DNA of 64,000 nucleotides, from positions 904,242 through 968,241 of the forward strand of contig CAZALK010000001.1 in assembly GCA_964486045.1 (NCBI GenBank), given 5' to 3'. The notes beneath the pieces are model-generated. The model did no database searches and was not told the origin of the DNA. It saw nothing but the letters and a program-made list of their open reading frames with translations. Shown piece by piece: positions 8,035-24,969 of this stretch; position 1 is the stretch's first letter; every line of letters starts with the position of its first letter. A program made the translations under genes and the position numbers. Source of the DNA: an uncultured archaeon. Lineage in GTDB: Archaea; Asgardarchaeota; Lokiarchaeia; Sigyniarchaeales; SOKP01.

Positions 8035-8724
8035 TCATATATCATTTCTGATACTTCTTATTAATTCAAATGCTTCAACATAAGTTTTTCCGACCTTGCG
8101 ACCCCAATCTTGAGCCATAATTCTTATTCCTTTGAGTGATCTTGAGTGCGGGTATTCTCTCAGTTCAGTTTTATAACATGCTAATGCTTTTAATTTTAAA
8201 TCAATCGTAGCAGAAATATCTATAAATACATTTGGTCTAAACAAATTATCTCCAGTGTTGATTTGCCATTCTGTCGCTGATGGTATTTCAAAACAATAAA
8301 TATCAGGATGGTTAAAATTAGGTTGAGGTCTACATGCAGTTAGAACAGCTTGAAAAGTTTTCCTATGATCAATGTTTAAATCTCCATGATGGTGAGTAAA
8401 TATTGTATCTGGCTTTATTTTTTCTATATAAGTTGAAACAGTTTTAACAAGATTCAATAGGGGTAATTTGTCGAATTCATTATCTGGGAAAGATTCAAAG
8501 AACGTATTTTTTATATCGATAACGTCATGAGCATTTTTAGTTTCTACTCTTAACTCTTTCTTTTCATCATTTGAAAATTCCTTTGTTCTTGAGGTTATAG
8601 CATCAACTAAAATTAAGGCTGAGATTACATTATCTTTTGCCAACTTTACTATTGTTCCTCCACACCCTAAGATTTCATCATCAGGATGGGCTGCAATGAT
8701 CAAGATTTTTTTATTTTTCATCAA
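8035..8724 (-). CDS. PIG-L/LmbE-family N-deacetylase
   Basis: AAHPDDEILGCGG and THHHGDLNIDH Zn-binding motifs. Confidence 0.9.
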   Translation of the reverse strand: MMKNKKILIIAAHPDDEILGCGGTIVKLAKDNVISALILVDAITSRTKEFSNDEKKELRVETKNAHDVIDIKNTFFESFPDNEFDKLPLLNLVKTVSTYIEKIKPDTIFTHHHGDLNIDHRKTFQAVLTACRPQPNFNHPDIYCFEIPSATEWQINTGDNLFRPNVFIDISATIDLKLKALACYKTELREYPHSRSLKGIRIMAQDWGRKVGKTYVEAFELIRSIRNDI

Positions 8725-9409
8725 TTGAAGGTTCCTCTTTCCTAATTATTACATTTGCTTTTAGTATATCATTTTTAAGAATGGGGTTATAAAACTCATA
8801 TTTAATATTATTTAATTTTAGAAATGCTTTAGGATAACTTTCAGCATCTAACATCCTTATAAAATCATATATTTTTCTAATTGATGTTAAATCCTTTAGG
8901 TTGCCTTCTTCAGCACCTCTTCGCCTAAACTTAGTTATTGTTCCTTTTTGAGGGATTGGGAATAATTTTTCATTTATTATCTCACCAATCATCTTATATA
9001 TTATATCTGATGCTTTTTTAAAAATATCTTCAGCTGTACCATGTTCAATATTCAAATACTTCTTTAAATAAATATTGCCAGCATCTAATTCTTTAACAAC
9101 TCTAAAAGCAGAGATTTTAGTTTCATAAATTCCTCTGGCAATTAAGTTTTGTAAGGGACTACCACCTCTACCGAAGGGTAAATCTGTCATGTGGAATAAT
9201 ATACATTCATATTTCTCAAATATTTCCTTGGGAATAATCCAAGACCAATGAATGAAGAAAATCTTCTTAGGGTTAATGGTATCCACGTTTTCTAATGAAA
9301 AATCTTCTTTTTTAGAGATAAGATGCCAGTTTCCCTTATAGGCCTTTGTATATTTGAAAAAATTTTCAATATTCCAAGATTTAATAGTAACTAATAAATA
9401 TTCTCCCAT
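8711..9409 (-). CDS. sugar N-formyltransferase (Fmt-like)
   Basis: FHMTDLPFGRGGSPLQNLI, ELDAG, IRMLDAESYP. Confidence 0.85.
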   Translation of the reverse strand: MGEYLLVTIKSWNIENFFKYTKAYKGNWHLISKKEDFSLENVDTINPKKIFFIHWSWIIPKEIFEKYECILFHMTDLPFGRGGSPLQNLIARGIYETKISAFRVVKELDAGNIYLKKYLNIEHGTAEDIFKKASDIIYKMIGEIINEKLFPIPQKGTITKFRRRGAEEGNLKDLTSIRKIYDFIRMLDAESYPKAFLKLNNIKYEFYNPILKNDILKANVIIRKEEPSIDEK

Positions 9410-9444
9410 TTTAGATTAAAACACCCATTATGATCCAAATACTA

Positions 9445-9909
9445 CTAAATTTTTTTCTTAAAAGTAATTATTGATTTCTCAAAACCATTTTTTTTAAAGA
9501 AATTTCTGCCCCCTATATTATCAATTACCGTCTTAGCAGTAAGTTCTGGAATTCCCAAATGCTTCATTTCTTTTTCAAATAATTGATAAGCATATGAGCC
9601 AATACCACTTTTTTGAAACAATTCCAACAAAGCAATACTAATCTCATGTTTTTCTTTATTATCACTTCTTTTTTTTGTCAATCTAATATACCCACAGATC
9701 TCTGATTTAAATTTAATAATATAAATATGCTCCTTGTCAAAAATTTCTTCCCACCATTTACAATGTTCTTTATAAGGAACCTTTTTAGAAGTTAAATGAA
9801 AGAATTCAATATTTTCATTAAATATTTCCCATACAGCTTTTTTATGAGATTCTATATCTTTTTGTGCTAATATAAGTTTAACCTCCTCAAAATTTACATT
9901 CATCTTCAT
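9445..9909 (-). CDS. GNAT N-acetyltransferase, PseH-like
   Basis: EHCKWW, FQKSGIG acetyl-CoA loop, N..FFKKNGF; follows pseG. Confidence 0.75.
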   Translation of the reverse strand: MKMNVNFEEVKLILAQKDIESHKKAVWEIFNENIEFFHLTSKKVPYKEHCKWWEEIFDKEHIYIIKFKSEICGYIRLTKKRSDNKEKHEISIALLELFQKSGIGSYAYQLFEKEMKHLGIPELTAKTVIDNIGGRNFFKKNGFEKSIITFKKKI

Positions 9910-9921
9910 TGCTCAATCTTT

Positions 9922-10929
9922 TCAAATATCTAATTTTATAGATGAATTTTCTATTATTCGGTCTATTAATTTCCTACTCCCGTCACTTTTTATAAGTTTT
10001 TGGGCAGTAATAACCATTTTTTTCCTTAATTCTTTTTTCTTTAATCTAGAAATTAGTTCCCTAATTTTTTCACATAAATTTTTATCATCCCACCAACCCG
10101 CAAAATAGTTTAAACCTGACTTAGAAAAAGCTTTTACATTATTTAGTTGATTATCTGCAACTACAATACTTATGGCGGGAACACCAACAATCGCCAATTC
10201 ATAAAGAGTTGTACCTCCAGCAGTTATAGCTAAATCAGATCCCAACATAACTTTCTTCATATCCTTTGCAGTAGGAAAATAAATTATTTCACAATTTTTA
10301 TCTATTTTAGCTTCGATTTTTTCAACATTCTTGAAACTCTTCCCTATTATTATTTTTTTTTCTAAATTAGGAAAGTAAGTATTAAGCATTTCTAAAATTG
10401 GTGGGGTTAAGTTTTTCATATCAGATCCACCAAGTGTGATTAGTACCGTTTTAATGTCCTCATTTATTTTTTTTTTCTGATAAGTCCAAAATTCGTTTCT
10501 CACCAAGCAGTATTCTGGTCCTAGTAAATATCTAATATTTTCTTCATTTGGATAATTCAATCTTTTAGCGTACATTGAATAGTTTACAACGAATCCCGGC
10601 GGATATTTCAGTCTATTATTATCATCAATAAACACTGGTTTTTTAACAACTTCAGATATCCTATTATATATTGAGAGGGGTGCTAAGTATGAATCGATAA
10701 TCGCTATTTCAGCTCCATCGATTAAATTGAAAAGTTGATTATTATCAATCAACCAATTAAAAAAGTACTTTCTCTGTACATTTAAAGTATTCTTAACAAT
10801 CTCATCCCCATTCACGATAAAATAAGGAATTATCTCTCTTTCTTCAAATGCCTGATAAAGTGATGTACAGCGAGTTGTATGTCCATAACCGACATTAAAA
10901 TTGCCTTCAGTAATTATACACACTTTCAT
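9922..10929 (-). CDS. pseG: UDP-2,4-diacetamido-2,4,6-trideoxy-hexose hydrolase (PseG/SpsG)
   Basis: GYGHTTRC, IIDSY, ITLGGSD, AGGTTLYE, VADNQ. Confidence 0.85.
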   Translation of the reverse strand: MKVCIITEGNFNVGYGHTTRCTSLYQAFEEREIIPYFIVNGDEIVKNTLNVQRKYFFNWLIDNNQLFNLIDGAEIAIIDSYLAPLSIYNRISEVVKKPVFIDDNNRLKYPPGFVVNYSMYAKRLNYPNEENIRYLLGPEYCLVRNEFWTYQKKKINEDIKTVLITLGGSDMKNLTPPILEMLNTYFPNLEKKIIIGKSFKNVEKIEAKIDKNCEIIYFPTAKDMKKVMLGSDLAITAGGTTLYELAIVGVPAISIVVADNQLNNVKAFSKSGLNYFAGWWDDKNLCEKIRELISRLKKKELRKKMVITAQKLIKSDGSRKLIDRIIENSSIKLDI

Positions 10930-10972
10930 GATTCTATTTTTCAGCTTCTTTGTCTTAATAAGATTTTTTAGA

Positions 10973-12016
10973 TTAAATCAAGTCCCATGTAATTATTTCA
11001 TCTTCATCAATATCTTTTTTGGCTGTTCTTTTTAGGACAATATCTAAAAATTTTGGTTTTATCCCAAAACCAGGTCGCTTTATCATGAGGTCTTCCGGTT
11101 CAATAATTTTACCTTTAGGGATTTTTCTTTTGGCAATGATACTCCTTCTTGCGAGTTTATATAAATTCTTTTCAGAATCGGCTATTTTTTTAACAGGGCT
11201 CCCCAAAACAATCTCGGTTTCTCTAATAGTCTTTATCATTCGCTTTAATTCTTTAGGCTCTAATGCAAATTTGTGATCTGGTCCCTCTAAAGATCTATTG
11301 ATCGTATAATGTTTCTCAATAATACATGCTCCAAGAGCTATACAAATAGAGGGGATATAAGTACTCATTGTATGATCTGAAAAACCCACAGGTACTTGAA
11401 ACGCTTGAATTAAGGTTTTTATAACTCGTAAATTTAAATCTTCAATAGGGGGGGGATAATTAATAGCACAATGAAGTAAAGCAATGTCATTGTCTCCTTC
11501 CTCTCTTATTATGTTGATTGCATCTTCAATATCTCCCATACTTGCCATACCTGTAGATAGTATAATCGGTTTTTTTGTTGTTGCTATTTTTTTTAAGAAA
11601 TGTAAATCACTTATTTCAAATGAAGCAACTTTATAGGCAAGCACTTTTAATTCCTCTAATTCTTTTATAGCTTGGTAATCAAATGGAGTAGATAAAAAGA
11701 TTAAACCATGGGATCTTGAGTAATCCGCAAGTTCCCCTTGCCATTCTCTTGGAAGCTCAATGTCTTTGATTAATTGCCAAAGAGATTTTTGATTTATCTT
11801 CCCTTTAAGATAATCAGGAGTTATTGTTTTTTTTGAATACATAGTTTCTGCGGAATAAGTTTGAAACTTTACTGCATCTGCTTCTGCTTCGGCCGCAATT
11901 TCAATTAATTTTTTAGCTTGATTTAAATCACGATTATGGTTAGAACCCGCTTCAGCAATTATAAATGTAGGGTAATTTTTTCCAATTTTTCTTTTTCCAA
12001 TTGTAATTTTGTTCAA
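10973..12016 (-). CDS. pseI: nonulosonic acid synthase (NeuB/PseI/SpsE family) with C-terminal SAF domain
   Basis: IIAEAGSNHN, AVKFQT, STPFD, GFSDHT, IEKHYT, KRPGFG. Confidence 0.9.
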   Translation of the reverse strand: MNKITIGKRKIGKNYPTFIIAEAGSNHNRDLNQAKKLIEIAAEAEADAVKFQTYSAETMYSKKTITPDYLKGKINQKSLWQLIKDIELPREWQGELADYSRSHGLIFLSTPFDYQAIKELEELKVLAYKVASFEISDLHFLKKIATTKKPIILSTGMASMGDIEDAINIIREEGDNDIALLHCAINYPPPIEDLNLRVIKTLIQAFQVPVGFSDHTMSTYIPSICIALGACIIEKHYTINRSLEGPDHKFALEPKELKRMIKTIRETEIVLGSPVKKIADSEKNLYKLARRSIIAKRKIPKGKIIEPEDLMIKRPGFGIKPKFLDIVLKRTAKKDIDEDEIITWDLI

Positions 12017-12037
12017 TCCAATTTCACTCTTTGTTAA

Positions 12038-13357
12038 TTAAGTTAATCTTTGGAACCCATTATGGGCAGTAGGACCTTTCAACAAAGAATTTGCATTATT
12101 TCTATCAATAGCTTCCTTGATAATCCCAAAAACTTCATCTACAGCTTTAAGATACTCAGTAACAATACGTTTAGTATGAGAATAACTTACATATACGCTA
12201 GATGATGCGAGATAACCTTTCATGAGCATTTCTTGAGTGAATAGTGTTTTCAATTCTTGAGCGTTTTCATAATCAAAAGAAAAGGTTATTAATGCATTAG
12301 GAGGTAAAATTGAGATATCAAGATTGTGAGTTTTTGCTAGAGTTATCCAACCTTCTCCAATTAATCCTCCTAATTTATTTAAATGAGTTGGTACATTATG
12401 TTTATATATTTTGTTAATTGTCGCTATTGCTGCCGCAGGTCCAATTCGTTCTGTCCAATATGTACTACTAATGAAGCTTGTCTGTGCAGCATCCATAACA
12501 TCAGCTTTACCGATAACCGCAGCCATTGGATATCCGTTGCTCATAGCTTTAGCCACAACCATCAGATCTGGGTTGACTCCAAATAATAGATGTGAACCTC
12601 CAGTAGTTAATCTCCAACCTGCAGTAATTTCATCAAATATTAGTACTGCATTAATTTCGTCAGCAATTTTCCTCACTTTTTTAAGAAAATTTTTCTCAGG
12701 TTCTTGGTGCCTTATAGGTTCAACTACAATAACACCGATATCATTTTTTTCAACTATAGATTCTAATTTCTTTATATTATTATACTCAAAAGGTATTGCA
12801 GTATTTATTAAACTTCTTGGCACTCCATTAGGATCAAGCCCTTGTAAAAGATGTCCATCAAGATTTGCATTGTCAGCTAAATTGCTAGCTAAATACCAAT
12901 CATGCCAACCATGATATCCACAAAATGCGATCTTATCTTTCTTAGTGAATGCTCGTGCTATTCTGACTGCAACCGTCATAATTTCTCCCCCTGTTCTTGC
13001 ATAACGCACCGAATCCGCCCATGGATGTAATTTTAATAGTAATTCAGCAAGCTCAACATCTTCTGGACTATTCAATGTAGTCATTGAGCCATTTTCAATA
13101 ACTTCTTTAACGGCTTTGTCAACATCGTCATCAGCATATCCTAGAATACATGTGCCTACTCCCATAATTGTCATGTCATAATAATGGTTATCGTCTAAGT
13201 CCCAAATTTCTACTCCTTTTGCTCGTTTATAAAAAGAAGGCCACTGATCCGGAAGGAACATCTCAGAACGCTTGCTTAAGAGTTGGGATCCTCCCGGTAT
13301 TAATTTTTTAGCCTTTTTCCACAGCTTAATGCCTTTTTCACTATTCATTATTTTCAC
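12038..13357 (-). CDS. class III PLP aminotransferase (GSA-aminomutase-like, glycan-cluster type)
   Basis: IPGGSQLLSKR, GYHGWHDW, IFDEITAGWR, AKAMSNG; probable start ATG 13348. Confidence 0.85.
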   Translation of the reverse strand: MKIMNSEKGIKLWKKAKKLIPGGSQLLSKRSEMFLPDQWPSFYKRAKGVEIWDLDDNHYYDMTIMGVGTCILGYADDDVDKAVKEVIENGSMTTLNSPEDVELAELLLKLHPWADSVRYARTGGEIMTVAVRIARAFTKKDKIAFCGYHGWHDWYLASNLADNANLDGHLLQGLDPNGVPRSLINTAIPFEYNNIKKLESIVEKNDIGVIVVEPIRHQEPEKNFLKKVRKIADEINAVLIFDEITAGWRLTTGGSHLLFGVNPDLMVVAKAMSNGYPMAAVIGKADVMDAAQTSFISSTYWTERIGPAAAIATINKIYKHNVPTHLNKLGGLIGEGWITLAKTHNLDISILPPNALITFSFDYENAQELKTLFTQEMLMKGYLASSSVYVSYSHTKRIVTEYLKAVDEVFGIIKEAIDRNNANSLLKGPTAHNGFQRLT

Positions 13358-13418
13358 ATCTAATTTCTAAATTCGTAAGATTTTACTCAATAAGCCACAC
13401 TTTGTTTATTTTTCTACT

Positions 13419-14171
13419 TTAAATAAGTTTTTCGTACATATCACGATTATATTTAGAATTTAATTCCTTTAATTCAGGATTTTTTTTAATAAAATCTATA
13501 ACATCATTCATTTTAAAATTGTTCCACCGTTTGTGAAAATTCTCAATTATTTTAGAAATTAATTCAAAATCTTCTTGCGTGTCGACAGTTAGACGATAAT
13601 CATTGTAATCTGATTTATTTGTAAAATTAAAAGTAGAAAATTTTCCTTGTTTATTCCGAATATCCTCCCGAATACATAAAGTAACATGCTCTCTTACTTC
13701 AATTCTTTTTTCTTCTTTAAAAACCCTTTCTAATGCTTCAAATGAGAAGATTTCTACATCAAATCCATCAGGATAAGTGGGAGGTTCTACGTTAGAAACA
13801 TAATCATAATTACCACTTAAGAAGATTTCTAATCCATTATCAATTATTGCAGGATCCATAAGAGGGCAGTCACTGGTAATCCTTACTATTATATCACCCT
13901 TATATATTTTAGCAGCTTGATAGTACCTATCAAGCACATCATCTTCACTTCCTGCAAAAAAGTCTATTTTTAAACTTTTAGCAAATTGTCTAATCGGTAT
14001 ATTATCATCTGTGATCGCTGTCGCAATAATTATTTTAGAGGGGGTCTTTACCAATTCTAACCTTTTAATAACGTACCATAATAATGGTTTACCTAAAATT
14101 CTCCGAAGAACCTTCCCTGGAAGCCGAGTAGACCCATACCTTGCTTGACAAATAATTAATATATTCTTCAT
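13419..14171 (-). CDS. spsF: SpsF-type cytidylyltransferase (CMP-nonulosonate synthetase)
   Basis: QARYGSTRLPGKVL, GSEDDVLDRY, RITSDCP, REHVT, RLTVDTQED. Confidence 0.88.
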   Translation of the reverse strand: MKNILIICQARYGSTRLPGKVLRRILGKPLLWYVIKRLELVKTPSKIIIATAITDDNIPIRQFAKSLKIDFFAGSEDDVLDRYYQAAKIYKGDIIVRITSDCPLMDPAIIDNGLEIFLSGNYDYVSNVEPPTYPDGFDVEIFSFEALERVFKEEKRIEVREHVTLCIREDIRNKQGKFSTFNFTNKSDYNDYRLTVDTQEDFELISKIIENFHKRWNNFKMNDVIDFIKKNPELKELNSKYNRDMYEKLI

Positions 14172-14240
14172 ATTATTCTACAATATATTTATAATTTAAA
14201 TTTGAATTATTTAATTATTAGATCAATAATTTTTTCAAGT

Positions 14241-15161
14241 TTACTCTTTCCATAAAGATGGATTTATTATTTTCTCGGTTAAATCAGAAAATTCTTGAAC
14301 TATCTGCTTCCTTAATTCAAGATCTAATGGATTTTCCTTCAACATACTAATATTATTCGATATTTGATTAACATTCTCTACACCAATTATTAAACTATCT
14401 ATTTCAGGAATATCCCTAACAAATAAAAATGCTATTTTAGCGATATTAATATTGAACTCATTAGACAGGGAGTTTAGCTTCATTAACGGCTCTTTTGCTC
14501 TTTCCAAGTATTTGGGTAATTTTGCAGGTGAGATGAAAAAAAGACCTTGGAGATATATGCTTCTAGCTAAAATCGTGTAATTAAATGATTTCAATCTTTT
14601 CAATAATCCTGTTTTTATAAGACGATGGTCAAAAATATTTAAAGGAACCTGTACTACGTCGATTTCCTTAAAATTTAATGCGGTTTCAACTTCCCAAGGA
14701 TTATAAACTGAAATCCCTATTTTGTTTAATAAACCTTCATTTTTTAATTGTTTTAAACATTCTATGACTATACCATTATTAATTAAGATATCGGGAGCGT
14801 TATGCAATAGATAAATTGGCATTGATTCGATTTTTAAATCGTTAAGAGAATGAGTTAATTGTTTTCTAATCAATTCATAAAGATCATCAAATATTATCGA
14901 TTCATTTATTTCCAACGCTGGTAATTTTGAAATTATATTTAAGCTTTCAACTTTATTCTTCAGTACAGTTGATTTAAAATTACCAATAATCTTTTCACTA
15001 TTCCCATACGAAGGGGCAGTATCAAAAGAATTTATTCCATGATCCCACGAATAATTTAAAATCCTGATTGAAGTATTAAAACCTGGTTTACCATTTTTAT
15101 TTGCTATACCATAATCTAAACCTAACTGGGCTGTTCCAAGTGTAAGTTTTGAAATGACCAT
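14241..15161 (-). CDS. aldo/keto reductase
   Basis: LGTAQLGLDYG, FDTAPSYGNSE, ARSIYLQGL. Confidence 0.88.
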   Translation of the reverse strand: MVISKLTLGTAQLGLDYGIANKNGKPGFNTSIRILNYSWDHGINSFDTAPSYGNSEKIIGNFKSTVLKNKVESLNIISKLPALEINESIIFDDLYELIRKQLTHSLNDLKIESMPIYLLHNAPDILINNGIVIECLKQLKNEGLLNKIGISVYNPWEVETALNFKEIDVVQVPLNIFDHRLIKTGLLKRLKSFNYTILARSIYLQGLFFISPAKLPKYLERAKEPLMKLNSLSNEFNINIAKIAFLFVRDIPEIDSLIIGVENVNQISNNISMLKENPLDLELRKQIVQEFSDLTEKIINPSLWKE

Positions 15162-15507
15162 GTTAAATTTTTAATATTTTTGACAAATTATTGATAACAT
15201 TTCTAATTATTTAATAAGTATAATGATATTTTTAAAAACTTTTATTAAGTAAAATCTTTAGAACTCATATAAGGGGCAATTATTTTAAAATTAGTGCGTA
15301 ATAAATATTCCTATTTTAATTTAAGCATTAAGTTCAACTATTTGGAAATAAAGAACAAATTTCAATAGTGATATTTAGTCGAAATTGTCAATTTATTAGA
15401 ATGAAATTGAGGGAAAATATAAATTAATTCATGTAATTATTTGTTTTAAGACTTTATAAAACATCATAAATATATAAAACATTAGATTAAGGAAGTGAGA
15501 TTTCTTA

Positions 15508-16473
15508 ATGGCTGAGATTTTTTACCATAAAACACAAAATAATTTTTTCGATAATTTGGTTGTAGATATAAAGAAGATATATTCAAAGCATCCCATTAAT
15601 AAAAAATATTCACCAAAGATTAACAATGTAAATTACACGAAAAATATTCATTATAAACTATACCGTAGTTCTTTAATTCCTTTAAGATTACGGAGACTCT
15701 TTTGGAGATTCTTAAGGCAGATTAATATCGATTTAACTTGGTTTAATGAATTTGAGAAATACTGGGTGAATATTATTGGTGGTCGGCCTTTATGGAACAT
15801 ACAAGATCTATTTTTCTTAAAGAATCTCTACAGAGTTAAATTTCAAGAGAATCAAATCCCTGATACAGAAAATGCTGCTATACATTTAGAAGCATGGCAA
15901 CAACCCGCTTTAATATATCAATTACTTCACTTAGTATGTAAAGAATCTGTTATGAATGAATCTAAATTATTAAAGTTACTAAGAACTTATAAAAAAAAAA
16001 TGAACTCATTTCTTGAATTCGGTTGTGGTACAGCACCGATTACAACCTCTTTATTTGATTTTTTTCATCTGTCAAAGAGAATGAAAATTTATATTTCAGA
16101 TATTCAAACTCTTGCGTTTAATTATGCCGCGTATAAATTTAGAAATTGTTCGAATGTAATTCCTTTATTGTTAGTCCCAGATAACAAATTTATCTTAAAT
16201 TTAAGTAGTAATGTTGATGTTATCACATGTATTTCAGTATTTGAACATTTAAACAAGCCTTTAGATACAATTAAAACGTTCTATGAAACACTCAAACCTG
16301 AAGGTCTATTATTTTTTGACTATATTATATCTTCCGGTGAAGGCTTGGACACAATGCAATCTGTAAGACAGAGAGAAAGTGTTTTGGATTTTATCAAGGA
16401 AAATTTCAAACCTATTTATGGTAAAATTACTAAGGAAAAAAGTATGGGACTAACCATTATAAAAAAACTATAA
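15508..16473 (+). CDS. class I SAM-dependent methyltransferase with N-terminal extension
   Basis: FLEFGCG, SVFEHL, LKPEG. Confidence 0.8.
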   Translation: MAEIFYHKTQNNFFDNLVVDIKKIYSKHPINKKYSPKINNVNYTKNIHYKLYRSSLIPLRLRRLFWRFLRQINIDLTWFNEFEKYWVNIIGGRPLWNIQDLFFLKNLYRVKFQENQIPDTENAAIHLEAWQQPALIYQLLHLVCKESVMNESKLLKLLRTYKKKMNSFLEFGCGTAPITTSLFDFFHLSKRMKIYISDIQTLAFNYAAYKFRNCSNVIPLLLVPDNKFILNLSSNVDVITCISVFEHLNKPLDTIKTFYETLKPEGLLFFDYIISSGEGLDTMQSVRQRESVLDFIKENFKPIYGKITKEKSMGLTIIKKL

Positions 16474-16677
16474 TTTTGGTTTGAAACTAAATAATGATAA
16501 AGTAACTAAAAACATTTCCTGTGGAACAAATAATCTCCATAGAAACAAATTAGATCTCATCTAAGAATTTGAAAATAGATTCTATAAAATACTAAAATGA
16601 AATAAATCATATATTTAAAGTAAAATATAAGATTCAAAGCGTTTCAGAAATAATCTAAATATTTAATTCATTCAAAC

Positions 16678-18081
16678 TTAATTTTTTAATTTTTGATCAT
16701 TAAATCTATCAATAAATAACCCAACTAATTCATTAATCCGTTTTTTTGAGATGTTTGGTAAATTTATAACAGCATTTTCGTATACATCACCTTCTTCCGT
16801 AAAACCTTTTATAAACCCATTTTTTAAACATATATCATATAATTCTGTTCCCAAAAAGGGTGAAAAGTGATGAACAGCGATACTTTCGGGATTTAATTTG
16901 AGATTAAAATTAATTGATTCAATAATCTGCTCTTCTGTTTCAAAAGGAACCCCCACAATATAATTTGCTGTAGCTCTTATTCCGTATTTTTCAGCAACTC
17001 TAAATGCATTGAAAATTGACTCATCAGAAATGTACTTACACATAATTTTTTCTCTTATCTCTTTTGAACCACTTTCAACACCTATACTAATTGCAACACA
17101 ACCCATATTTTTCAATATTCTAGCAGTAGTATTAGTTATGGTTTTGGACTCTGACTGTATTGTAAAAGGGAGCTTGATTTCTTTCACCCATAATCTTTCA
17201 AACTCTTCTAAATCATTCTCATCCATTAATAAAAGAAAGTTGGTGTCCCCAAACGAAACCATATTAAACTCAAACATTTCTTTCATATATTTAATCTCAT
17301 CAATCATTCTTCTTATGGATTTTCTCCTTAGGTATGGTTTTGGATATCCTTGAGCTTTCCTTAAACTAGGTGCAACACAAAATGAACAATTATTTAGACA
17401 TCCTCTACTGAATTCAAATGAACCTCCTTTATATACATTTCCCACAAAAGGTTTCCACATATGTCTTTCATCAAATAGGGACCAATCTGGGTATGGTAAA
17501 TCATCTAATTCAACCAAAGGTCTTATGGGGTTTTTTATTACTTTCCCATCTTTTTTCAACCATAGATTTTTAATATCATATATATTTTCATTATTAACAA
17601 TTTTGTCTGCAAGGTCAACAATAGCCCCTTCTCCTTCACCAACACAAATTATATCAACAAAATGTAAATTAATAATCATATCTGGCACTATAGTGGGTAA
17701 TATCCCCCCAACTATTATTGGAACTAAAAAATTCTCTTTTATCTTTTTCATCAAATCTTTTGCAACGAAGAAATTTCTTTCAAGAAGTGAAATTGCAATT
17801 AAATCTGGTTTAAATTCATTAATTTTTTTAAGAAGCTCTTCCGTTATATTTTTTTCTTCTATTTCGCCAATGTAGTCATTTAGATTTGTTTCTTCAACAA
17901 GACCTTTTTTTTCCATTAACTCAGTATCTTTGTTATAATTAGGAGTCATGAAAGTTGTATCAAATAATTCAACAATATGCCCTGACCTTTTGAGACAAGA
18001 TGATAAAATCGTTATTGAAAGAGGAATTCTAAATTCTGATTCAAAATTTGGATATATAAACAATGTTCTCGCTTTATTCAT
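16678..18081 (-). CDS. B12-binding radical SAM protein
   Basis: N-terminal B12-binding domain (GGILPT, VGEGE), RGCLNNCSFC (CxxxCxxC), IGVESGS, IVGVPFET. Confidence 0.9.
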   Translation of the reverse strand: MNKARTLFIYPNFESEFRIPLSITILSSCLKRSGHIVELFDTTFMTPNYNKDTELMEKKGLVEETNLNDYIGEIEEKNITEELLKKINEFKPDLIAISLLERNFFVAKDLMKKIKENFLVPIIVGGILPTIVPDMIINLHFVDIICVGEGEGAIVDLADKIVNNENIYDIKNLWLKKDGKVIKNPIRPLVELDDLPYPDWSLFDERHMWKPFVGNVYKGGSFEFSRGCLNNCSFCVAPSLRKAQGYPKPYLRRKSIRRMIDEIKYMKEMFEFNMVSFGDTNFLLLMDENDLEEFERLWVKEIKLPFTIQSESKTITNTTARILKNMGCVAISIGVESGSKEIREKIMCKYISDESIFNAFRVAEKYGIRATANYIVGVPFETEEQIIESINFNLKLNPESIAVHHFSPFLGTELYDICLKNGFIKGFTEEGDVYENAVINLPNISKKRINELVGLFIDRFNDQKLKN

Positions 18082-18102
18082 GATATCTCCAATAAATTTT
18101 AC

Positions 18103-19140
18103 TTATATATTCTTATTATTTATTACTGCTTTTCTAAACCCACATCTTCTACAAATATCTAATTCTCTTGATTTTCCTTCTAAATGCAGTTTTCTTATTC
18201 TCTCTAGCTTTTCTCCTTTCCATATTGATTCAATATTTTGATCTCTTAAATTTCCCAATATATCTTTTTTATTATGATTACCACAACACATGACTACATC
18301 TCCATTATATAAAATAAAAAGCCTCTGCCACAAATATTGACAAGTAAAGTCACAATCATTTGAGAGAAAATCATATTCTAAAATAAATTCGCTTAATTTG
18401 TCAATAGCAACATTTTCTACTATATTTTCCCATCTTTTGACAAAAAATTTTAACTGTTCTTTATTGTTTCTCATATCAAAAACTTGAACAGAAACAATCG
18501 GTTTTAAAATAGCCTTTCTTCTCTTCAATAACATAAAATTTTGTATATTTTTAATTATTTTTGATGTTTTAATTATACCCCTTCTCAAATTTAACTTACC
18601 TTCTGAAAGTGGACCAAGGACACAAAATAATTTATCAAGGGATGAATTTAACAGATTCAAACTCATATCTCCTGATAACAATGATGAATTTGAGTTAAGC
18701 ATAACATCCAATATCCCGTGTTGTTTTGCATACCAAATAAACTCAATTATTTTTGGATGTAGAAGAGGTTCTCCTCTGTAATTTAGTTTGATAGACAATA
18801 ATCCTTTCTTCTCACCCTCTGTTATTATTCTCTTAAATAATTCAACATCAAAATTAATTTGTGGAAGTTTTCTATCATCGGGTAAATCATATGGACATTT
18901 TAATGTGCAGATTTTTTGTTGACAGTTTAAATTGCAATAGGTTGTTATCTCAAAGTCGAGATGTATAGGAAAATTGTCAACAATATGATCTCGTGGATAT
19001 TGTTCCCATTTTCTTCGGTATTCCTTATATTCTAGAGTTTCAGTTAAGGTTTTATAATGAGCTTTAGAGGGATATTCTCTATATGTATTGCTTTGAATTA
19101 ATCTCGTTTTTTCAGCTTTTATTAGCTTATTATGCACCAT
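18103..19140 (-). CDS. radical SAM/SPASM(twitch) protein with atypical Fe-S motif
   Basis: CNLNCQQKICTLKC in place of CxxxCxxC; RGEPLLHP; C-terminal C...GDVVMCC...C..C. Confidence 0.82.
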   Translation of the reverse strand: MVHNKLIKAEKTRLIQSNTYREYPSKAHYKTLTETLEYKEYRRKWEQYPRDHIVDNFPIHLDFEITTYCNLNCQQKICTLKCPYDLPDDRKLPQINFDVELFKRIITEGEKKGLLSIKLNYRGEPLLHPKIIEFIWYAKQHGILDVMLNSNSSLLSGDMSLNLLNSSLDKLFCVLGPLSEGKLNLRRGIIKTSKIIKNIQNFMLLKRRKAILKPIVSVQVFDMRNNKEQLKFFVKRWENIVENVAIDKLSEFILEYDFLSNDCDFTCQYLWQRLFILYNGDVVMCCGNHNKKDILGNLRDQNIESIWKGEKLERIRKLHLEGKSRELDICRRCGFRKAVINNKNI

Positions 19141-19403
19141 GTTTTTAGGATCAAAATATAAACCATATCATATGATTTGTTTTCTGCTGGAAAACCAATA
19201 AAAAAAGTAATAAAAAATTAATAAAAGTTGTTATTACAATTTACAAATTTTTTGTATTTGCTGATTTTGTTTAATCAGAGAATTTTTTTTCTCAAATAAA
19301 ATTAATCTTCATTCTTGTACCTTTTATTATTTGAATAAAATTCATTAAAAATTATGACATATTTTATAATATACTTACTCTAAAATCAAGAATGTAAACA
19401 ACT

Positions 19404-20435
19404 ATGCTAAATAATAAAAATATATTAATTACGGGAGGAACGGGCACAATTGGGCTAGGTTTGATTAAATTTTTATTAGACCATTATTCTCCGAAAGTAA
19501 TAAGAATTTTTAGTCGAGATGAAACAAAACAGGCTAAAATTTGGAATCTATTAGGAAAAAAATCTCAAGATAAATTAAGGTTTTTTATAGGCAATATTAG
19601 AGATAAACAAAGATTAACAATAGCATTAGAGGATGTAGAAGTAGTTTTTCATTTAGCAGCATTAAAACACGTTGCTGTTTGTGAATATAATCCATTTGAA
19701 GCAATTAAGACCAATGTTATAGGACTTCAGAATTTAATAGAAATTTGTATTGAAAAAAATGTTGAAACAGTAGTTTATACAAGTTCGGATAAAGCAGCTA
19801 CACCTTGTAATACTATGGGGGTTACAAAATTGCTAGGTGAAAAATTATTAACCACAGCTAATTATTATAAAGGAAGAAAAAGAACAAAATTTTACTCAGT
19901 AAGATTTGGAAATGTTTTAGGATCTAGGGGATCTCTTATTCCATTAATCAAAAATCAAATTAAAAACAATCACCCTATTACGTTAACAGATAATAAAATG
20001 ACTAGATATATTATGAGTTTGGATATGGCAATTAATTTACTCATTAAGACTTTACCCATTGCTCAGGGTGGAGAAGTTTTTGTTCTTAAAATGGATTCTA
20101 TTCAAATCATTGATCTCGTTGAAGTGTTAATAGAGAATTTTGCTGAAAAATATCAAAAAGAAAAAAGAAATATCGAAATTAAAGAAATTGGGATGTTTGA
20201 GGGAGAAAAATTATATGAAGAATTATTTTCCATCGAAGAATCTGAAAGGACTTATGAACTAGACGAGACATTTGTTATTATTCCTCAATTAACACCTGTG
20301 CATACGAAAATTGATTTAAAAAAATATAAAGAAATAAAGAAATTTGATTGTTCCCTCCCATTTAATTCTAGAGAAGGACCATTTCTTTCTCAAGGAGAAA
20401 TTAAAGAATTTCTGAAGAAATATAATATAATTTAA
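19404..20435 (+). CDS. UDP-GlcNAc 4,6-dehydratase family (PseB/Pen-like, Polysacc_synt_2)
   Basis: GGTGTIG, FSRDETKQ, HLAALKHV, SDKA, MGVTK, RFGNVLGSRGS, GEKLYEEL. Confidence 0.88.
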   Translation: MLNNKNILITGGTGTIGLGLIKFLLDHYSPKVIRIFSRDETKQAKIWNLLGKKSQDKLRFFIGNIRDKQRLTIALEDVEVVFHLAALKHVAVCEYNPFEAIKTNVIGLQNLIEICIEKNVETVVYTSSDKAATPCNTMGVTKLLGEKLLTTANYYKGRKRTKFYSVRFGNVLGSRGSLIPLIKNQIKNNHPITLTDNKMTRYIMSLDMAINLLIKTLPIAQGGEVFVLKMDSIQIIDLVEVLIENFAEKYQKEKRNIEIKEIGMFEGEKLYEELFSIEESERTYELDETFVIIPQLTPVHTKIDLKKYKEIKKFDCSLPFNSREGPFLSQGEIKEFLKKYNII

Positions 20436-20454
20436 ATAATTCTGGTGATTTGAA

Positions 20455-21399
20455 ATGGTATTTTTAGTTACTGGTGGTGCGGGGTTTATTGGACGGTGGG
20501 TTGTAAAGAAATTATTATCAATGGAAAGAGACATCGTTGTAATTGATAATTTAAGTAATGGTAGTAAAGAAAACTTATTGGAATTTAATGAAAATTTGCA
20601 TTTAAAAGAAATCATTGTAGAAGATATAAGAAATAATAAAATTCTCGATGACTTGTTTTTAAAATATAGATTTAATTGTTGTATTCATTTAGCAGCTCAA
20701 ATAAATGTACAAGAAAGCTTAGAAAATCCTGAGAAATCGTTTGAATATAATGTCATAGGAACCTATAATCTCTTAGAAACTGCTCGTAAATATCAAACAA
20801 AAGTAGTTATTGTAGGAACATGTATGGTGTATGATTTAGCAGAATCGGTTATACCAATATCTGAGTCACATAGAACTAAGCCATCTTCTCCTTATGCCGG
20901 ATCTAAATTGGCAGCAGAGGATTTAGCTCTATCTTATTTTTACGGATTTAATTTACCAGTTGTTATATTAAGACCTTTTAACACTTATGGTCCATTTCAA
21001 AAAACTGATATGGAGGGCGGAGTTGTTCCTATATTTGTTAAGAATAAGATCAACAATGAAAAGTTAAAGGTATTTGGGGACGGAACTCAGACCAGAGATT
21101 TATTATATGTTGAGGATTGCGCTGAATTTATAGTAAAAGCGTCAGAATGCGAAAAATGTGTTGGGGAAGTTATTAATGCTGGAATAGGAGAAGATATTTC
21201 TATTAATGATTTAGCAAAATTAATTATTAGTGATGAGAACCTTATTGAACATGTTAAACATCATCACCCACAGAGCGAAATCATGAAACTAGTATGTAAT
21301 AACTTAAAAGCAAAGACATTATTAAAATGGGAACCAAAGATTTCATTAGAAGAGGGGATTGCTAGATTAGAAGAATGGATTCGTGGAGGTGAAAGATAA
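20455..21399 (+). CDS. NAD-dependent epimerase/dehydratase, Pal-like
   Basis: GGAGFIGRWVVK, HLAAQINVQES, TCMVY, PYAGSK, RPFNTYGPFQK, HPQSEI. Confidence 0.85.
   Translation: MVFLVTGGAGFIGRWVVKKLLSMERDIVVIDNLSNGSKENLLEFNENLHLKEIIVEDIRNNKILDDLFLKYRFNCCIHLAAQINVQESLENPEKSFEYNVIGTYNLLETARKYQTKVVIVGTCMVYDLAESVIPISESHRTKPSSPYAGSKLAAEDLALSYFYGFNLPVVILRPFNTYGPFQKTDMEGGVVPIFVKNKINNEKLKVFGDGTQTRDLLYVEDCAEFIVKASECEKCVGEVINAGIGEDISINDLAKLIISDENLIEHVKHHHPQSEIMKLVCNNLKAKTLLKWEPKISLEEGIARLEEWIRGGER
21385..21392 (+). promoter_or_regulatory. Shine-Dalgarno site of pseC
   Basis: GGAGGTGA immediately upstream of ATA ATA (21396/21399). Confidence 0.7.
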
Positions 21400-22592
21400 T
21401 AGAAAAACCAGCAATAGAAGGGGGAAAACCAGTTAGAGCGAATTTTCTTCCCTATGGAACCCAATGGTTAGATGATGATGAAATTGATGAAGTTGTAAAT
21501 ACATTAAAATCTAACTGGATTACTACTGGTCCTAAAATGAGACTTTTCGAGGAAAATTTTAATAAATATATTGGATCTAAATACGCAGTAGCTGTTAATT
21601 CTGGAACTGCCGCTTTACATGTATCTACTTCAAGTATTGACATAAATCCAGGAGATGAAGTAATTACTACCCCTTTAACGTTTGTTGCATCTGCGAATTG
21701 CATAGTTTATCGAGGGGGAACTCCAGTTTTTGCTGATATCAAAGAGGACACGTACAATATTAATCCTCTTGAGATTAAGAAAAAAATAAATTCAAAGACG
21801 AAGGCAATAATCCCTGTGCATTTTGCAGGTCAACCTTGCGATATGGATGAAATACATGAAATTGCTAATGAAAACGATCTGTATATAATTGAAGATGCCG
21901 CACACGCAATAGATGCAGAATATAAAGGGAAAAAAATAGGTAATCTCAGTGATTTAACAATTTTTAGTTTCCATCCTGTAAAAAATATCACCACAGCAGA
22001 GGGTGGTATGGTTACAACTAATAATGAGGAATTATATGAAAAGTTAGTAATGTTTAGAACTCATGGAATCACAAAGGATACTATAAAAAGATTTGGTAAG
22101 GAAGGGGGTTTTTATTATGATATGCAACACTTAGGATTTAGATATAACTTAAGCGAACTTCATTCTTCTTTAGGAATTCATCAGTTAAGGAAACTCAAAT
22201 CCTTTCAGAAAAGAAGAAGGGAAATTGTCAAAATTTATAACAAAGAATTAAATACAAATGATCTAATTAAAATTCCATTTGTAAAGGAAAATGTTAAACA
22301 CTCTTGGCATCTCTACATAATTCAATTAAATTTGGAAAATCTGAAGGTTGATAGAGATCATATTTTTAAAGCTCTTAGAGAAGAAAATATAGGCGTCAAT
22401 GTTCACTATATTCCAGTCCACTACCATTCATTTTATTATGAAAAATTTGGATTAAGAAAAGGGATATTACCAAAAGTAGAAAATTTATTTCCAAGATTAC
22501 TAACGATTCCGCTATTTCCTAAAATGAGTGATAAGGATGTTAATGATGTTATAAATGCTTTGGAAAAAGTTCTGAATTATTATCGAAAATAA
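21396..22592 (+). CDS. pseC: DegT/DnrJ/EryC1 aminotransferase (PseC-like); N-terminus extended upstream of the ORF-track start
   Basis: NSGTAALH, EDAAHA, SFHPVKNITTAEGG; in-frame upstream sequence IIEKPAIEGGKPVRANFLPYGTQWLDDDEIDEVVNTLKSNWITTGPK is the conserved N-terminus. Confidence 0.88.
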   Translation: MIEKPAIEGGKPVRANFLPYGTQWLDDDEIDEVVNTLKSNWITTGPKMRLFEENFNKYIGSKYAVAVNSGTAALHVSTSSIDINPGDEVITTPLTFVASANCIVYRGGTPVFADIKEDTYNINPLEIKKKINSKTKAIIPVHFAGQPCDMDEIHEIANENDLYIIEDAAHAIDAEYKGKKIGNLSDLTIFSFHPVKNITTAEGGMVTTNNEELYEKLVMFRTHGITKDTIKRFGKEGGFYYDMQHLGFRYNLSELHSSLGIHQLRKLKSFQKRRREIVKIYNKELNTNDLIKIPFVKENVKHSWHLYIIQLNLENLKVDRDHIFKALREENIGVNVHYIPVHYHSFYYEKFGLRKGILPKVENLFPRLLTIPLFPKMSDKDVNDVINALEKVLNYYRK

Positions 22593-22797
22593 AAAAAGAT
22601 TTAATCTTTTATTTTTCCTTGCATTCGTTTCTATTTAAGAAATGAGGTATTCCTTATTTTTCATTGATCTTAAATATATATTATAATTAACTCATTAAGT
22701 ATTAGAGTAAGTAATAAAAAGAATCAAGTATATTGATAGTGTAGCGTAAAGACTTACCCGAAGATAATATTTTAACTTTATAAATTGAGTTTATAAA

Positions 22798-23862
22798 ATG
22801 GAAAAGAAAGAAGTAGATCTTTATTTTGGCTTTCAAGAAGTTAAAAGCGACAATGCGATCAATTGGGAGAAGAGTCGTTCAGAAGCATATAAAGAATATA
22901 GGAAAAAATGGGATGAGATACCTAAAACGCTTAAAATACCAAAATTTCCATTACATTTAGATATTGAAGCTTCTAATAAGTGTAATCTCAAATGTCCAAT
23001 GTGTCCAAGGACAGTCCGAATTACTGAAGGAAAATGGAGAGCTGAAAGAAATTTTAACTTTTCTTTGTATAAAAAGGTTTTGGATGAAGGTGGAAAGAAA
23101 GGATTATGTGCATTAAATTTAAATCATTCAGGAGAGCCTTTACTTCATCCATCTTTGCCAGAAATGATAAAATATGCAAAAGATGTAGGGATACTTGATG
23201 TTTTTTTTCATACTAATGGTACTTTACTGACAGAAAAGATGTCTAGAAAACTGGTAACCTCAGGCCTTGATAGAATGGTGATTTCTTTTGATTCACCATA
23301 CAGAGAAAAATATAATAGAATTAGGATTGGAGCCGATTATGATCAAGTTTTCGATAATATTAAAAAAATGAAAGATGTAAAAAAAGAATTAAAAAGTCTT
23401 ACACCGATAACTCGAATCAATATGGTAAAATTCCTGGATATTGAAAAAAAAGAAATTGATGATGCGGTAAATTTGTTCTCTAAAATTGTCGATATAGTCG
23501 GATTTTTAGATTATGTAGACTATGATCTCGTATTTAGCAATATAGGAAACAAAATTGAATTTCCTGAAAATTACATATCAAATTTTATTTGTACCCAACC
23601 ACTCACAAGAATGACATTATATGAAGATGGCAGAGTTTTCCCATGTTGTTGGGATAGTTATGAGCTTTATTGTATAGGAGATGTAAATAAAAATAGTCTT
23701 GAAAATATTTGGACATCTGACAAATTAGAATTCCTCAGAAAGAAGCACTCAGAGGGTAAATTCTTTGAAATCCCTATGTGTAAGAATTGTATTTATGCAC
23801 TAGAATCTGATAATTTTTCTAAGAAAATTATTCAATCTTCTCATGGTAGAAAGAAATATTAA
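22798..23862 (+). CDS. radical SAM/SPASM(twitch) protein
   Basis: CNLKCPMC, SGEPLLHP, HTNG, DGRVFPCC, C-terminal CKNC. Confidence 0.9.
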   Translation: MEKKEVDLYFGFQEVKSDNAINWEKSRSEAYKEYRKKWDEIPKTLKIPKFPLHLDIEASNKCNLKCPMCPRTVRITEGKWRAERNFNFSLYKKVLDEGGKKGLCALNLNHSGEPLLHPSLPEMIKYAKDVGILDVFFHTNGTLLTEKMSRKLVTSGLDRMVISFDSPYREKYNRIRIGADYDQVFDNIKKMKDVKKELKSLTPITRINMVKFLDIEKKEIDDAVNLFSKIVDIVGFLDYVDYDLVFSNIGNKIEFPENYISNFICTQPLTRMTLYEDGRVFPCCWDSYELYCIGDVNKNSLENIWTSDKLEFLRKKHSEGKFFEIPMCKNCIYALESDNFSKKIIQSSHGRKKY

Positions 23863-23950
23863 AAAGTGGATTTTAAAAAAAACTTTTTATCAATATACCA
23901 CTTAAACAGAATTAGTAATGGTAATAATTAAAATCAAGATTTAAGTTTCT

Positions 23951-24946: not shown

Positions 24947-24969
24947 AATTTTGAGAGGAAAATGATAAT

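Follow-up and report, generated by a model that had tools for sequence, protein, structure and literature searches.

The Bti_pse operon of Bacillus thuringiensis, as summarized in later papers, encodes Pen, Pal, Pam, Pcp, Phy, Pdi, and Ppa (Li et al. 2015, as cited in PMC7439481 and PMC8987622). Among archaea, legionaminic acid (Leg) was described in Halorubrum sp. PV6 with a NeuC/Leg-type route (PMC6137143), and signals of pseudaminic acid (Pse) or Leg were described in 'Ca. Methanoperedens' (PMC11337218). We compared these systems, the classical PseBCHGIF pathway, and the sps pathway of Bacillus subtilis with a locus of nonulosonate genes in a 64,000-nucleotide stretch of DNA from an uncultured Lokiarchaeon (assembly GCA_964486045.1, contig CAZALK010000001.1, positions 904,242 to 968,241 of the forward strand). 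This whole stretch is called the window, and all positions are counted from its first letter. No literature on Asgard nonulosonate or NeuB pathways or on Pal in archaea was found in the library searched, which is no proof of novelty, and a 2026 paper on Clostridium Pse makes no mention of Pal or tailoring genes.

The locus probably makes a CMP-activated (cytidine monophosphate) 5,7-diamino-3,5,7,9-tetradeoxy-nonulosonate, most likely Pse (L-glycero-L-manno), for a surface glycan of this Loki-type Asgard archaeon. The Pse-type stereochemistry is probable but not proven; four things favor it, namely the presence of Pal, of PseC, and of PseG, and the way in which Pal and PseB complement each other, taken with the context of the synthase clade. 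The genes themselves are present, belong to the expected families, and are orthologous to characterized B. thuringiensis enzymes. An earlier note on this DNA had claimed an apparently complete pathway in two divergent blocks, and both points held. The seven genes that it named were all intact in Pfam and NCBIfam searches, with coordinates and strands as claimed, every step had a candidate gene, and the blocks extend over 8035–15161 (minus strand) and 19404–25935 (plus strand). All 18 genes of the locus had open frames at full family length. The genome is 99% complete, and its one NeuB-family gene, its one CTP_transf_3 gene above the cut-off, and its one strong Polysacc_synt_2 (PseB-family) gene all lie in the locus (Table 1).

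The second short-chain dehydrogenase/reductase (SDR) of the locus is, judged by its sequence, a Pal orthologue. Its match to the solved structure 6bwl covered residues 2–310, and the runner-up structure, a UDP-glucose 4-epimerase, reached only 163 bits. The protein was 57% identical to Pal of the pse operon on B. thuringiensis plasmid pIS56-328. Four Pal motifs had been named in the earlier note (GFIGRWVVK, TCMVY, YAGSK, and HPQSEI). All of them were present and aligned without gaps with both B. thuringiensis and Halorussus Pal, with TCM at the acid/base position. Among 74 sequences placed on a tree, 72 rows made up the Pal clade, which was split from other SDRs by a branch of 3.4 changes per column (Shimodaira–Hasegawa-like approximate likelihood ratio test, SH-aLRT, 96). 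Eight Asgard Pal sequences, that of the window among them, formed one clade within it (SH-aLRT 99), and one genome of the window's genus had a different Pal lineage. The resemblance to B. thuringiensis Pal was thus confirmed as true orthology. The gene adjoins a PseB-family dehydratase gene and a PseC gene. Gene context was counted in 46 Pal loci that came from named genomes and measured 14 kb or more, in which the companions of Pal were a PseC homologue (38/46), a synthase (37/46), an SpsF-type gene (32/46), PseG (22/46), and NeuC (1/46).

The dehydratase next to Pal had Pen as its best solved match (6bwc, 296.6 bits; Helicobacter pylori FlaA1, 236 bits) and shared 51% identity with the Pen orthologue of B. 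thuringiensis. On the PseB model (TIGR03589) it scored 331.3 bits, below the cut-off of 407.75, and the Pen orthologue also fell below it (310 bits). The family motifs were defined as [ST]DK and YxxxK, with a Met state in PglF and WbpM (PMC8987622), and SpsM is also Met-type (PMC7439481). The alignment showed that the window dehydratase keeps the [ST]DK acid/base pair as SSDKA. The Tyr of YxxxK was not kept: the protein reads TMGVTK, with Met aligned at the catalytic Tyr of both Pen and PseB. The name Pen, given to this protein in the earlier note, was therefore not borne out in the strict sense, although Pen is its best solved match.

The nonulosonate synthase scored 383.1 bits on the NeuB_NnaB/LegI model (TIGR03569; cut-off 399.65) and 337.5 bits on the PseI model (TIGR03586; cut-off 340.25), on which the Bacillus synthase reached 502.7 bits. 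In a tree of 56 synthases, it grouped with two Promethearchaeota sequences (100/100), and the seven-row clade around these three also contained ANME-1, Chloroflexi, and Clostridia sequences (98/96). The canonical PseI clade was taken as the clade with the B. thuringiensis, Klebsiella, A. baumannii, and S. fredii enzymes, and the seven-row clade was split from it at 100/100. Joining the Asgard trio to the canonical PseI clade was not rejected in the approximately unbiased (AU) test (p = 0.098), so the position outside PseI is that of the best tree and not a proven exclusion. A larger tree was built by adding 146 cluster representatives found among 1.84 billion proteins, together with 80 metagenome loci that had been selected solely for their synthase, with Pal disregarded. 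The window synthase fell in a 49-row clade (support 94) and outside the 154-row NeuB/LegI clade (support 87–98), which contained every NeuC-context reference.

Gene context of the synthases was counted in synthase-selected loci of at least 8 kb. The ten loci of the window's synthase clade contained PseG in 8/10 and neither NeuC nor Pal (0/10 each), and all 7 of their dehydratases were Tyr-type PseB. In the 24 loci of the NeuB/LegI clade, PseG was found in 0/24, NeuC in 18/24, and Pal in 0/24, and the dehydratases were of Met or Leu type. Because of the trees and these counts, the window synthase can be said to belong to a distinct clade with Pse-type gene context (PseG, PseB, PseC, and never NeuC). 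Within the synthase evidence, it is only this gene context that would point to Pse. The earlier note had raised grouping with LegI/NeuB enzymes as a problem for a Pse product. The synthase lies outside that clade, but in the best tree it is also placed apart from canonical PseI, and of the two models NeuB gives it the higher score.

Every member of the dehydratase family in the loci fetched was then assigned to a residue type. Next to Pal, 42 of 48 dehydratases were Met-type and 6 were Tyr-type, and the latter all came from Bacillota, including B. thuringiensis. When Pal was absent and the synthase lay outside the NeuB/LegI clade, all 12 were Tyr-type with the PseB motif LYGATK, and a PseG homologue was nearby in 9 of the 12. 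When Pal was absent and the synthase lay in the NeuB/LegI clade (Leg-type), all 7 were Met or Leu type, none was Tyr, and NeuC was nearby in 5. Pal and Tyr-type PseB were mutually exclusive in PseG-type clusters and replaced one another in clusters that were otherwise alike. In the dehydratase tree, the Tyr-type PseB enzymes formed a single clade (SH-aLRT 96), and the Tyr-type Pen enzymes formed a small subclade of six rows, all Bacillota, nested in Met-type Bacillota enzymes.

A Met-type dehydratase with Pal looks like a common stand-in for the inverting PseB in Pse-type routes, since the dehydratases beside Pal are mostly Met-type and those of Pal-less loci outside the NeuB/LegI clade are all Tyr-type. 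The earlier proposal that Pal and Pen together replace PseB stood as to Pal and a partner, which fits the exclusivity of Pal and PseB, but the partner is Met-type and not strictly Pen. In the simplest reading, a Met-type dehydratase on its own would serve Leg-type routes, and the studied Tyr-type Pen would be a derived special case. Tyr-type Pen is limited to the small Bacillota subclade, and therefore textbook Pen chemistry may not represent most Pal pathways.

The aminotransferase passed the PseC model (TIGR03588) with 461.7 bits at a cut-off of 423.5 and reached only 237.9 bits on the LegC model. Its identity to the pseC product of B. thuringiensis was 55%. The earlier note had placed this gene at 21396; the reading frame of 21396–22592 and the family were correct, but the likely start codon is ATA at 21399. 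This start is favored because no ATG, GTG, or TTG was found upstream of the conserved N-terminus, three Asgard relatives begin with GTG or ATG at the matching codon, and a Shine-Dalgarno sequence, GGAGGTGA, lies at 21385–21392, its end 6 nt away from this codon. Another ATA directly precedes it at 21396 and shares bases with the TAA that terminates the Pal gene. The ATA at 21399 may be either a near-cognate start or a base-call error, with a small risk to function.

The remaining core proteins were assigned with varying margins. The hydrolase, called PseG in the earlier note, proved to be PseG-type, although it passed the curated model narrowly (156.3 bits against a cut-off of 153.55). It was 25% identical to the B. 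thuringiensis pseG product, and no solved relative was found by sequence search. The GNAT protein expected at 9445 was present as a member of the fold family, but it is not a member of the PseH family (TIGR03585, 30.3 bits against a cut-off of 93.1). Copies with 50–52% identity stand beside the synthase in two Promethearchaeota metagenome-assembled genomes (MAGs). Its only solved relative by sequence was MJ1062, which we take to belong to the MJ1061–1066 sugar cluster of M. jannaschii. The cytidylyltransferase was confirmed as SpsF/Pcp-type, as the earlier note had it. The PseF model (TIGR03584) gave no match at E ≤ 1e-5, the best matches were KdsB subfamilies, and the protein showed 29% identity over 237 residues with the product of the fourth (Pcp-type) gene in the B. 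thuringiensis pse operon.

We infer the following route, including its order of substrates, stereochemistry, tailoring, and surface display. The Met-type dehydratase would dehydrate UDP-N-acetylglucosamine (UDP-GlcNAc) to a 4-keto-6-deoxy sugar or a 5,6-ene, and Pal would fix the C5 configuration to give UDP-4-keto-6-deoxy-N-acetyl-L-altrosamine (UDP-4-keto-6-deoxy-L-AltNAc). C4 would be aminated by the PseC-type transaminase, and the amine would be acylated by the GNAT protein, the formyltransferase-like protein, or both. PseG would then remove UDP, the NeuB-family synthase would add phosphoenolpyruvate, and the SpsF/Pcp-type enzyme would form the CMP sugar. Tailoring would probably involve the deacetylase, the class III aminotransferase, the aldo/keto reductase, the two Gfo/Idh/MocA proteins, the three radical S-adenosylmethionine (SAM) proteins, and methyltransferases. 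Display of the sugar on the surface is plausible, since the surrounding glycan island contains a flippase-like gene and glycosyltransferases that could place it there; the roles in partner interactions and virus evasion that the earlier note suggested for it are putative.

Several observations weigh against a Pse product. The main doubt comes from the precedent of B. subtilis. There, a similar set without Pal (Met-type dehydratase, PseG-like SpsG, SpsE, and SpsF) is reported to give Leg by a UDP-linked route, and pen-pal complemented the first step of this route and restored the product (PMC7439481), so Pal may also feed Leg synthesis. The same genes in the window might then make a legionaminic-type or other non-Pse isomer, with the dehydratase yielding UDP-4-keto-6-deoxy-D-GlcNAc, D-gluco intermediates downstream, and Pal as an accessory or in another branch; we regard this as unlikely. 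SpsE was placed solely by triangulation of bit scores against PDB structures, in which it was the nearest solved relative of the window synthase (238.5 bits, against 220 for Campylobacter jejuni PseI and 178 for Neisseria meningitidis NeuB). The corresponding scores were 179, 288, and 140 bits for the Bacillus synthase and 161, 153, and 163 bits for a Leg-type Sulfitobacter synthase. However, SpsE is no close relative of the window synthase, because more than 150 cluster representatives (50% identity) outscored it. The higher NeuB_NnaB score with both models below cut-off, the place outside the canonical PseI clade in the best tree, the failure of the GNAT protein on the PseH model, and the noncanonical start of pseC belong on the same side of the balance. 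Furthermore, Met-type dehydratases of NeuC-context (Leg-type) clusters were interspersed with Pal-linked ones in the dehydratase tree. A protein of glycosyltransferase B (GT-B) fold with NeuC as its best fold match sits at the end of the plus-strand block. The dehydratase has no Tyr at the position of Pen's, and therefore the 5,6-ene chemistry of Pen cannot be assumed. Against a Leg-type product stand the company of Pal, which is PseC in most loci and NeuC in one, the exchange of Pal with Tyr-type PseB in clusters otherwise alike, and the clear preference of the aminotransferase for the PseC model over the LegC model. NeuC was also absent from the genome by hidden Markov model (HMM) search, and both of its Epimerase_2 genes, which lie upstream of the window at distances of 43 and 94 kb, are of the WecB type.

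These two epimerases could supply N-acetylmannosamine (ManNAc) if the blocks served separate pathways, the plus-strand block making a modified UDP-4-amino-4,6-dideoxy-hexosamine for direct use in glycans and the minus-strand block condensing a different hexosamine. The blocks are indeed divergent, with 4 kb of other tailoring genes between them, and five of the 20-kb Pal loci had no synthase or PseC homologue nearby. Such a division is nevertheless distinctly improbable: PseG, which acts after the PseC and acetyltransferase steps, is located in the synthase block, the same two blocks are adjacent in two related MAGs, most of the Pal loci contain a synthase, and the window has no second dehydratase and aminotransferase set for the synthase block. 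Decay or silence of the cluster in this strain through loss of the pseC start codon appears very improbable. The missing ATG, GTG, or TTG, in a position where relatives have GTG or ATG, would agree with it, as would the patchy occurrence of Pal (9/301 genomes), which indicates that gains and losses happen. However, every gene of the locus is open at full length and the ribosome-binding site before ATA 21399 is strong; the ATA is a near-cognate start, and a single-base assembly error is also possible. A Pse-type product thus remains the reading that we prefer.

Table 1. Genes of the nonulosonate locus and its neighbors in order of position; the minus-strand block runs from 15161 down to 8035.
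Position	Strand	Place	Feature	Support
6157–7791	-	neighbor of pse block	Wzx-like flippase candidate	protein-atlas feature score 0.99 to Polysacc_synt/flippase clusters
8035–8724	-	minus-strand block	PIG-L/LmbE-family N-deacetylase	Pfam PIG-L 78 bits; AHPDD motif at residue 12
8711–9409	-	minus-strand block	Formyltransferase-like protein	Pfam Formyl_trans_C_2 65.6 bits, partial Formyl_trans_N
9445–9909	-	minus-strand block	GNAT acetyltransferase, candidate for 4-N-acetylation (PseH role)	Pfam Acetyltransf_1 50 bits
9922–10929	-	minus-strand block	PseG-type UDP-sugar hydrolase	NCBIfam PseG (TIGR03590) 156.3 bits
10973–12016	-	minus-strand block	Nonulosonate synthase, NeuB family with SAF domain	Pfam NeuB 300 bits
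12038–13357	-	minus-strand block	Class III (glutamate-1-semialdehyde-aminomutase-like) aminotransferase, putative tailoring	Pfam Aminotran_3 143.7 bits
13419–14171	-	minus-strand block	SpsF/Pcp-type cytidylyltransferase, candidate CMP-nonulosonate synthetase	Pfam CTP_transf_3 106 bits
14241–15161	-	minus-strand block, first gene	Aldo/keto reductase	Pfam Aldo_ket_red 106.9 bits
15508–16473	+	between blocks	SAM-dependent methyltransferase	Pfam Methyltransf_23/12/11
16678–18081	-	between blocks	B12-binding radical SAM enzyme	Pfam B12-binding and Radical_SAM
18103–19140	-	between blocks	Radical SAM/SPASM protein	Pfam SPASM 54.9 bits; NCBIfam radical SAM maturase families below cut-off
19404–20435	+	plus-strand block	UDP-GlcNAc dehydratase, PseB/Pen/PglF family, Met-type (SDK...MxxxK)	Polysacc_synt_2 325 bits
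20455–21399	+	plus-strand block	Pal orthologue, second SDR of two-enzyme entry	PDB 6bwl 396.6 bits, E 8.6e-118
21399–22592	+	plus-strand block	PseC-type (DegT) aminotransferase, probable ATA start	NCBIfam PseC 461.7 bits
22798–23862	+	plus-strand block, downstream of pseC	Radical SAM/SPASM protein	Pfam Radical_SAM 69.7 bits, SPASM 46.7 bits
23951–24946, 24970–25935	+	plus-strand block	Two Gfo/Idh/MocA-type oxidoreductases	Pfam GFO_IDH_MocA 33.5, 26.6 bits
25977–27125	-		GT-B-fold protein, 382 aa	predicted structure, pLDDT 80.6

The tailoring genes recur beside nonulosonate genes in other genomes. Homologues of the PIG-L protein (40–48% identity) adjoin PseG and the synthase in five loci. In three of these, within the window's synthase clade, the PIG-L gene is paired with a formyltransferase-like gene, and in two it stands alone. 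In the window, these two genes overlap by 14 nt. The best NCBIfam match of the formyltransferase-like protein was the formyltransferase part of ArnA, and the catalytic-domain His and Asp are retained together with the SPLQ loop. Formyl transfer is uncertain because the Asn of N-x-H is replaced (ILFH) and about 35 N-terminal residues, or the first third of the N-terminal domain, are missing. The class III aminotransferase had every NCBIfam match below cut-off. The aldo/keto reductase gene adjoins an SpsF-type gene in six loci. One of them is the chromosomal pse operon of Bacillus bingmayongensis, and others belong to two Promethearchaeota, to Methanoperedens, and to Chloroflexi. Homologues of the Gfo/Idh/MocA proteins adjoin a class III aminotransferase gene in two loci. 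A recurrent trio of class III aminotransferase, SpsF-type gene, and oxidoreductase (aldo/keto reductase or Gfo/Idh/MocA) was found in six loci. It occurred in both Pse-type and Leg-type clusters and in bacteria, methanogens, haloarchaea (a Halorussus plasmid), and Asgard archaea. A reasonable guess is that the trio performs an oxidation followed by a transamination, which would put an amino group onto the sugar or its side chain.

The B12-binding radical SAM enzyme matched class B radical SAM families of NCBIfam, all below cut-off, and a homologue with 36% identity lies within the Pal cluster of a related MAG. It is probably a tailoring enzyme of the C-methyltransferase type. The radical SAM/SPASM protein at 18103 matched SPASM alone in Pfam and not Radical_SAM, whereas its paralogue at 22798 matched both. 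The flippase candidate (544 aa) had no Pfam match, and its identification as a Wzx-type oligosaccharide flippase, from a language-model search, is a lead only. With these genes, the product might be an undescribed, heavily tailored Pse-type sugar that carries radical SAM C-methylation, either N-formylation or an exchange of the N-acyl group, and one additional amino group. Its entry would differ in chemistry from Pen/Pal of Bacillus and consist of a plain Met-type 4,6-dehydratase and Pal as a C5 epimerase, the ancestral and commonest two-enzyme form. We put this forward tentatively, as a possibility with less in its favor than a Pse-type product in general. Candidate sources of the three modifications would be the B12/radical SAM enzymes, the pair of deacetylase and formyltransferase-like protein, and the module of oxidoreductase and class III aminotransferase.

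The 382-aa protein downstream of the plus-strand block had no Pfam or NCBIfam match and only 17 homologues in 5.8 billion proteins. Its model matched the folds of NeuC (Z 17.6), UDP-GlcNAc 2-epimerases (Z 16–17), and TagF (Z 15.9), a fold search that cannot tell a 2-epimerase from a transferase. From this model, the protein is a candidate nonulosonate transferase or a divergent 2-epimerase-like enzyme or hydrolase. For three of its homologues, the longest contig is equal in length to that of a Pal homologue, which hints that the two genes may share contigs. Its start may be over-called because the homologues have no counterpart of its first ~60 residues. A relationship to the TagF-like gene next to the Bacillus operon was considered and rejected, as the two showed no similarity.

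The first 36.7 kb of the window form a glycan-biosynthesis island (about 36 kb) in which the pse-type genes are included. The island also contains RmlB/RmlD-like genes, four GT1/GT2-type glycosyltransferases, about nine methyltransferases, and a 551-aa protein with a glycosyltransferase-like domain. It is followed by the housekeeping genes for RNase PH, PheA, and the beta and alpha subunits of PheRS. The earlier note had suspected an Asgard host from the letters alone, and this was correct. PheRS alpha was 72–92% identical to MAG proteins labelled Promethearchaeota, Lokiarchaeota, or other Asgard archaea, and the closest Pal and synthase homologues (68–78% identity) came from Promethearchaeota MAGs and a Loki's Castle sediment metagenome. 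The G+C content was about 28% throughout the window and 26–33% in the locus region, the same as in the remaining window. A recent foreign origin of the locus was considered and dropped: the G+C content fits the window, and the Pal, dehydratase, and synthase sequences of Asgard archaea group in clades of their own.

Orthologues of Pal (42–72% identity) were found in named genomes of Asgard archaea, ANME-1, Methanoperedens, Methanosarcinaceae, Methanoregula, DPANN, Chloroflexota, Bacillota, Myxococcota, and others. The Pal-type layout is shared by many microbes, and the pathway itself is a solid but fairly ordinary find. Among 301 sampled Asgard genomes, Pal was present in 9; by rank, it occurred in 3 of the other 22 genomes of the genus and in 5 of the 68 of the family. 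A NeuB-family match above the Pfam cut-off was present in 92 of the 301, some of these matches being weak and partial. Because of this difference, nonulosonate synthesis appears to be common in Asgard genomes, with the Pal route as a sporadic variant. Such a patchy occurrence suggests that strains vary in this trait, as they might under pressure from viruses or partners. As a separate observation, a near-complete genome of the same family (G147) carries Pal and five NeuB-family genes within about 60 kb (contig C10, 507007–567870), one of them with an in-frame TAG. A further observation concerns the MAG contig JBHLQA010000176.1 (L005), labelled 'Candidatus Odinarchaeota'. Its Pal is identical to that of locus L168 (genome G219), which belongs to the same genus as the window's Lokiarchaeon, and the label therefore looks inconsistent.

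Among known prokaryotes, Asgard archaea are most closely related to eukaryotes. To our knowledge, almost nothing is known of their surface chemistry. An intact pathway in a variable glycan island provides a testable candidate for a sialic-acid-like surface sugar in this group. Beyond this genome, the general point is that Pal is widespread in archaea and bacteria with a Met-type dehydratase as its usual partner, and that the studied Tyr-type Pen of Bacillus is the exception. The survey also exposed an annotation gap: the PseI cut-off of NCBI misses an entire clade of synthases whose gene context is Pse-type, and such clusters are therefore probably under-annotated. We consider the locus of moderate interest, mostly for its host lineage and for the Met-type partners of Pal.

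Compared with Bti_pse, the window has the same two-SDR entry with a true Pal, a PseC-type transaminase, a PseG-type hydrolase, a NeuB-family synthase, and a cytidylyltransferase that is SpsF-like and not PseF-like. The gene order dehydratase-Pal-PseC is conserved. Identities to the pse operon of pIS56-328 ranged from the values given above for Pal, PseC, and Pen, through 39% for the synthase, to those of the Pcp-type enzyme and PseG. However, the window dehydratase has Met and not Tyr in YxxxK, its synthase belongs to another clade with a far lower PseI score (337 against 503 bits), and its acetyltransferase is an unrelated GNAT protein. The window also differs in having two divergent blocks, about ten extra tailoring genes, and an archaeal host.

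The classical PseBCHGIF pathway of Helicobacter and Campylobacter, also found on a Klebsiella plasmid, shares the same predicted intermediates from the 4-keto sugar on, and PseC and PseG pass the same curated models. In contrast to that pathway, the window has no single Tyr-type inverting PseB and no PseF-type or PseH-type protein, and its synthase is placed outside the canonical PseI clade in the best tree. The sps pathway of B. subtilis (SpsM, C, D, G, E, and F; PMC7439481) resembles the window in its Met-type dehydratase, GNAT-type acetyltransferase, PseG-like hydrolase, and SpsF-type enzyme, and in SpsE as the nearest solved synthase by bit scores. However, B. subtilis has no Pal, the window aminotransferase passes the PseC model, and the reported sps product is Leg. 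The archaeal nonulosonate clusters share with the window an archaeal host. Halorubrum differs by its NeuC/Leg-type route, whereas the loci of Methanoperedens and of the Halorussus plasmid share with the window a Met-type dehydratase, Pal, a DegT-type aminotransferase, a synthase, an SpsF-type enzyme, and a class III aminotransferase.

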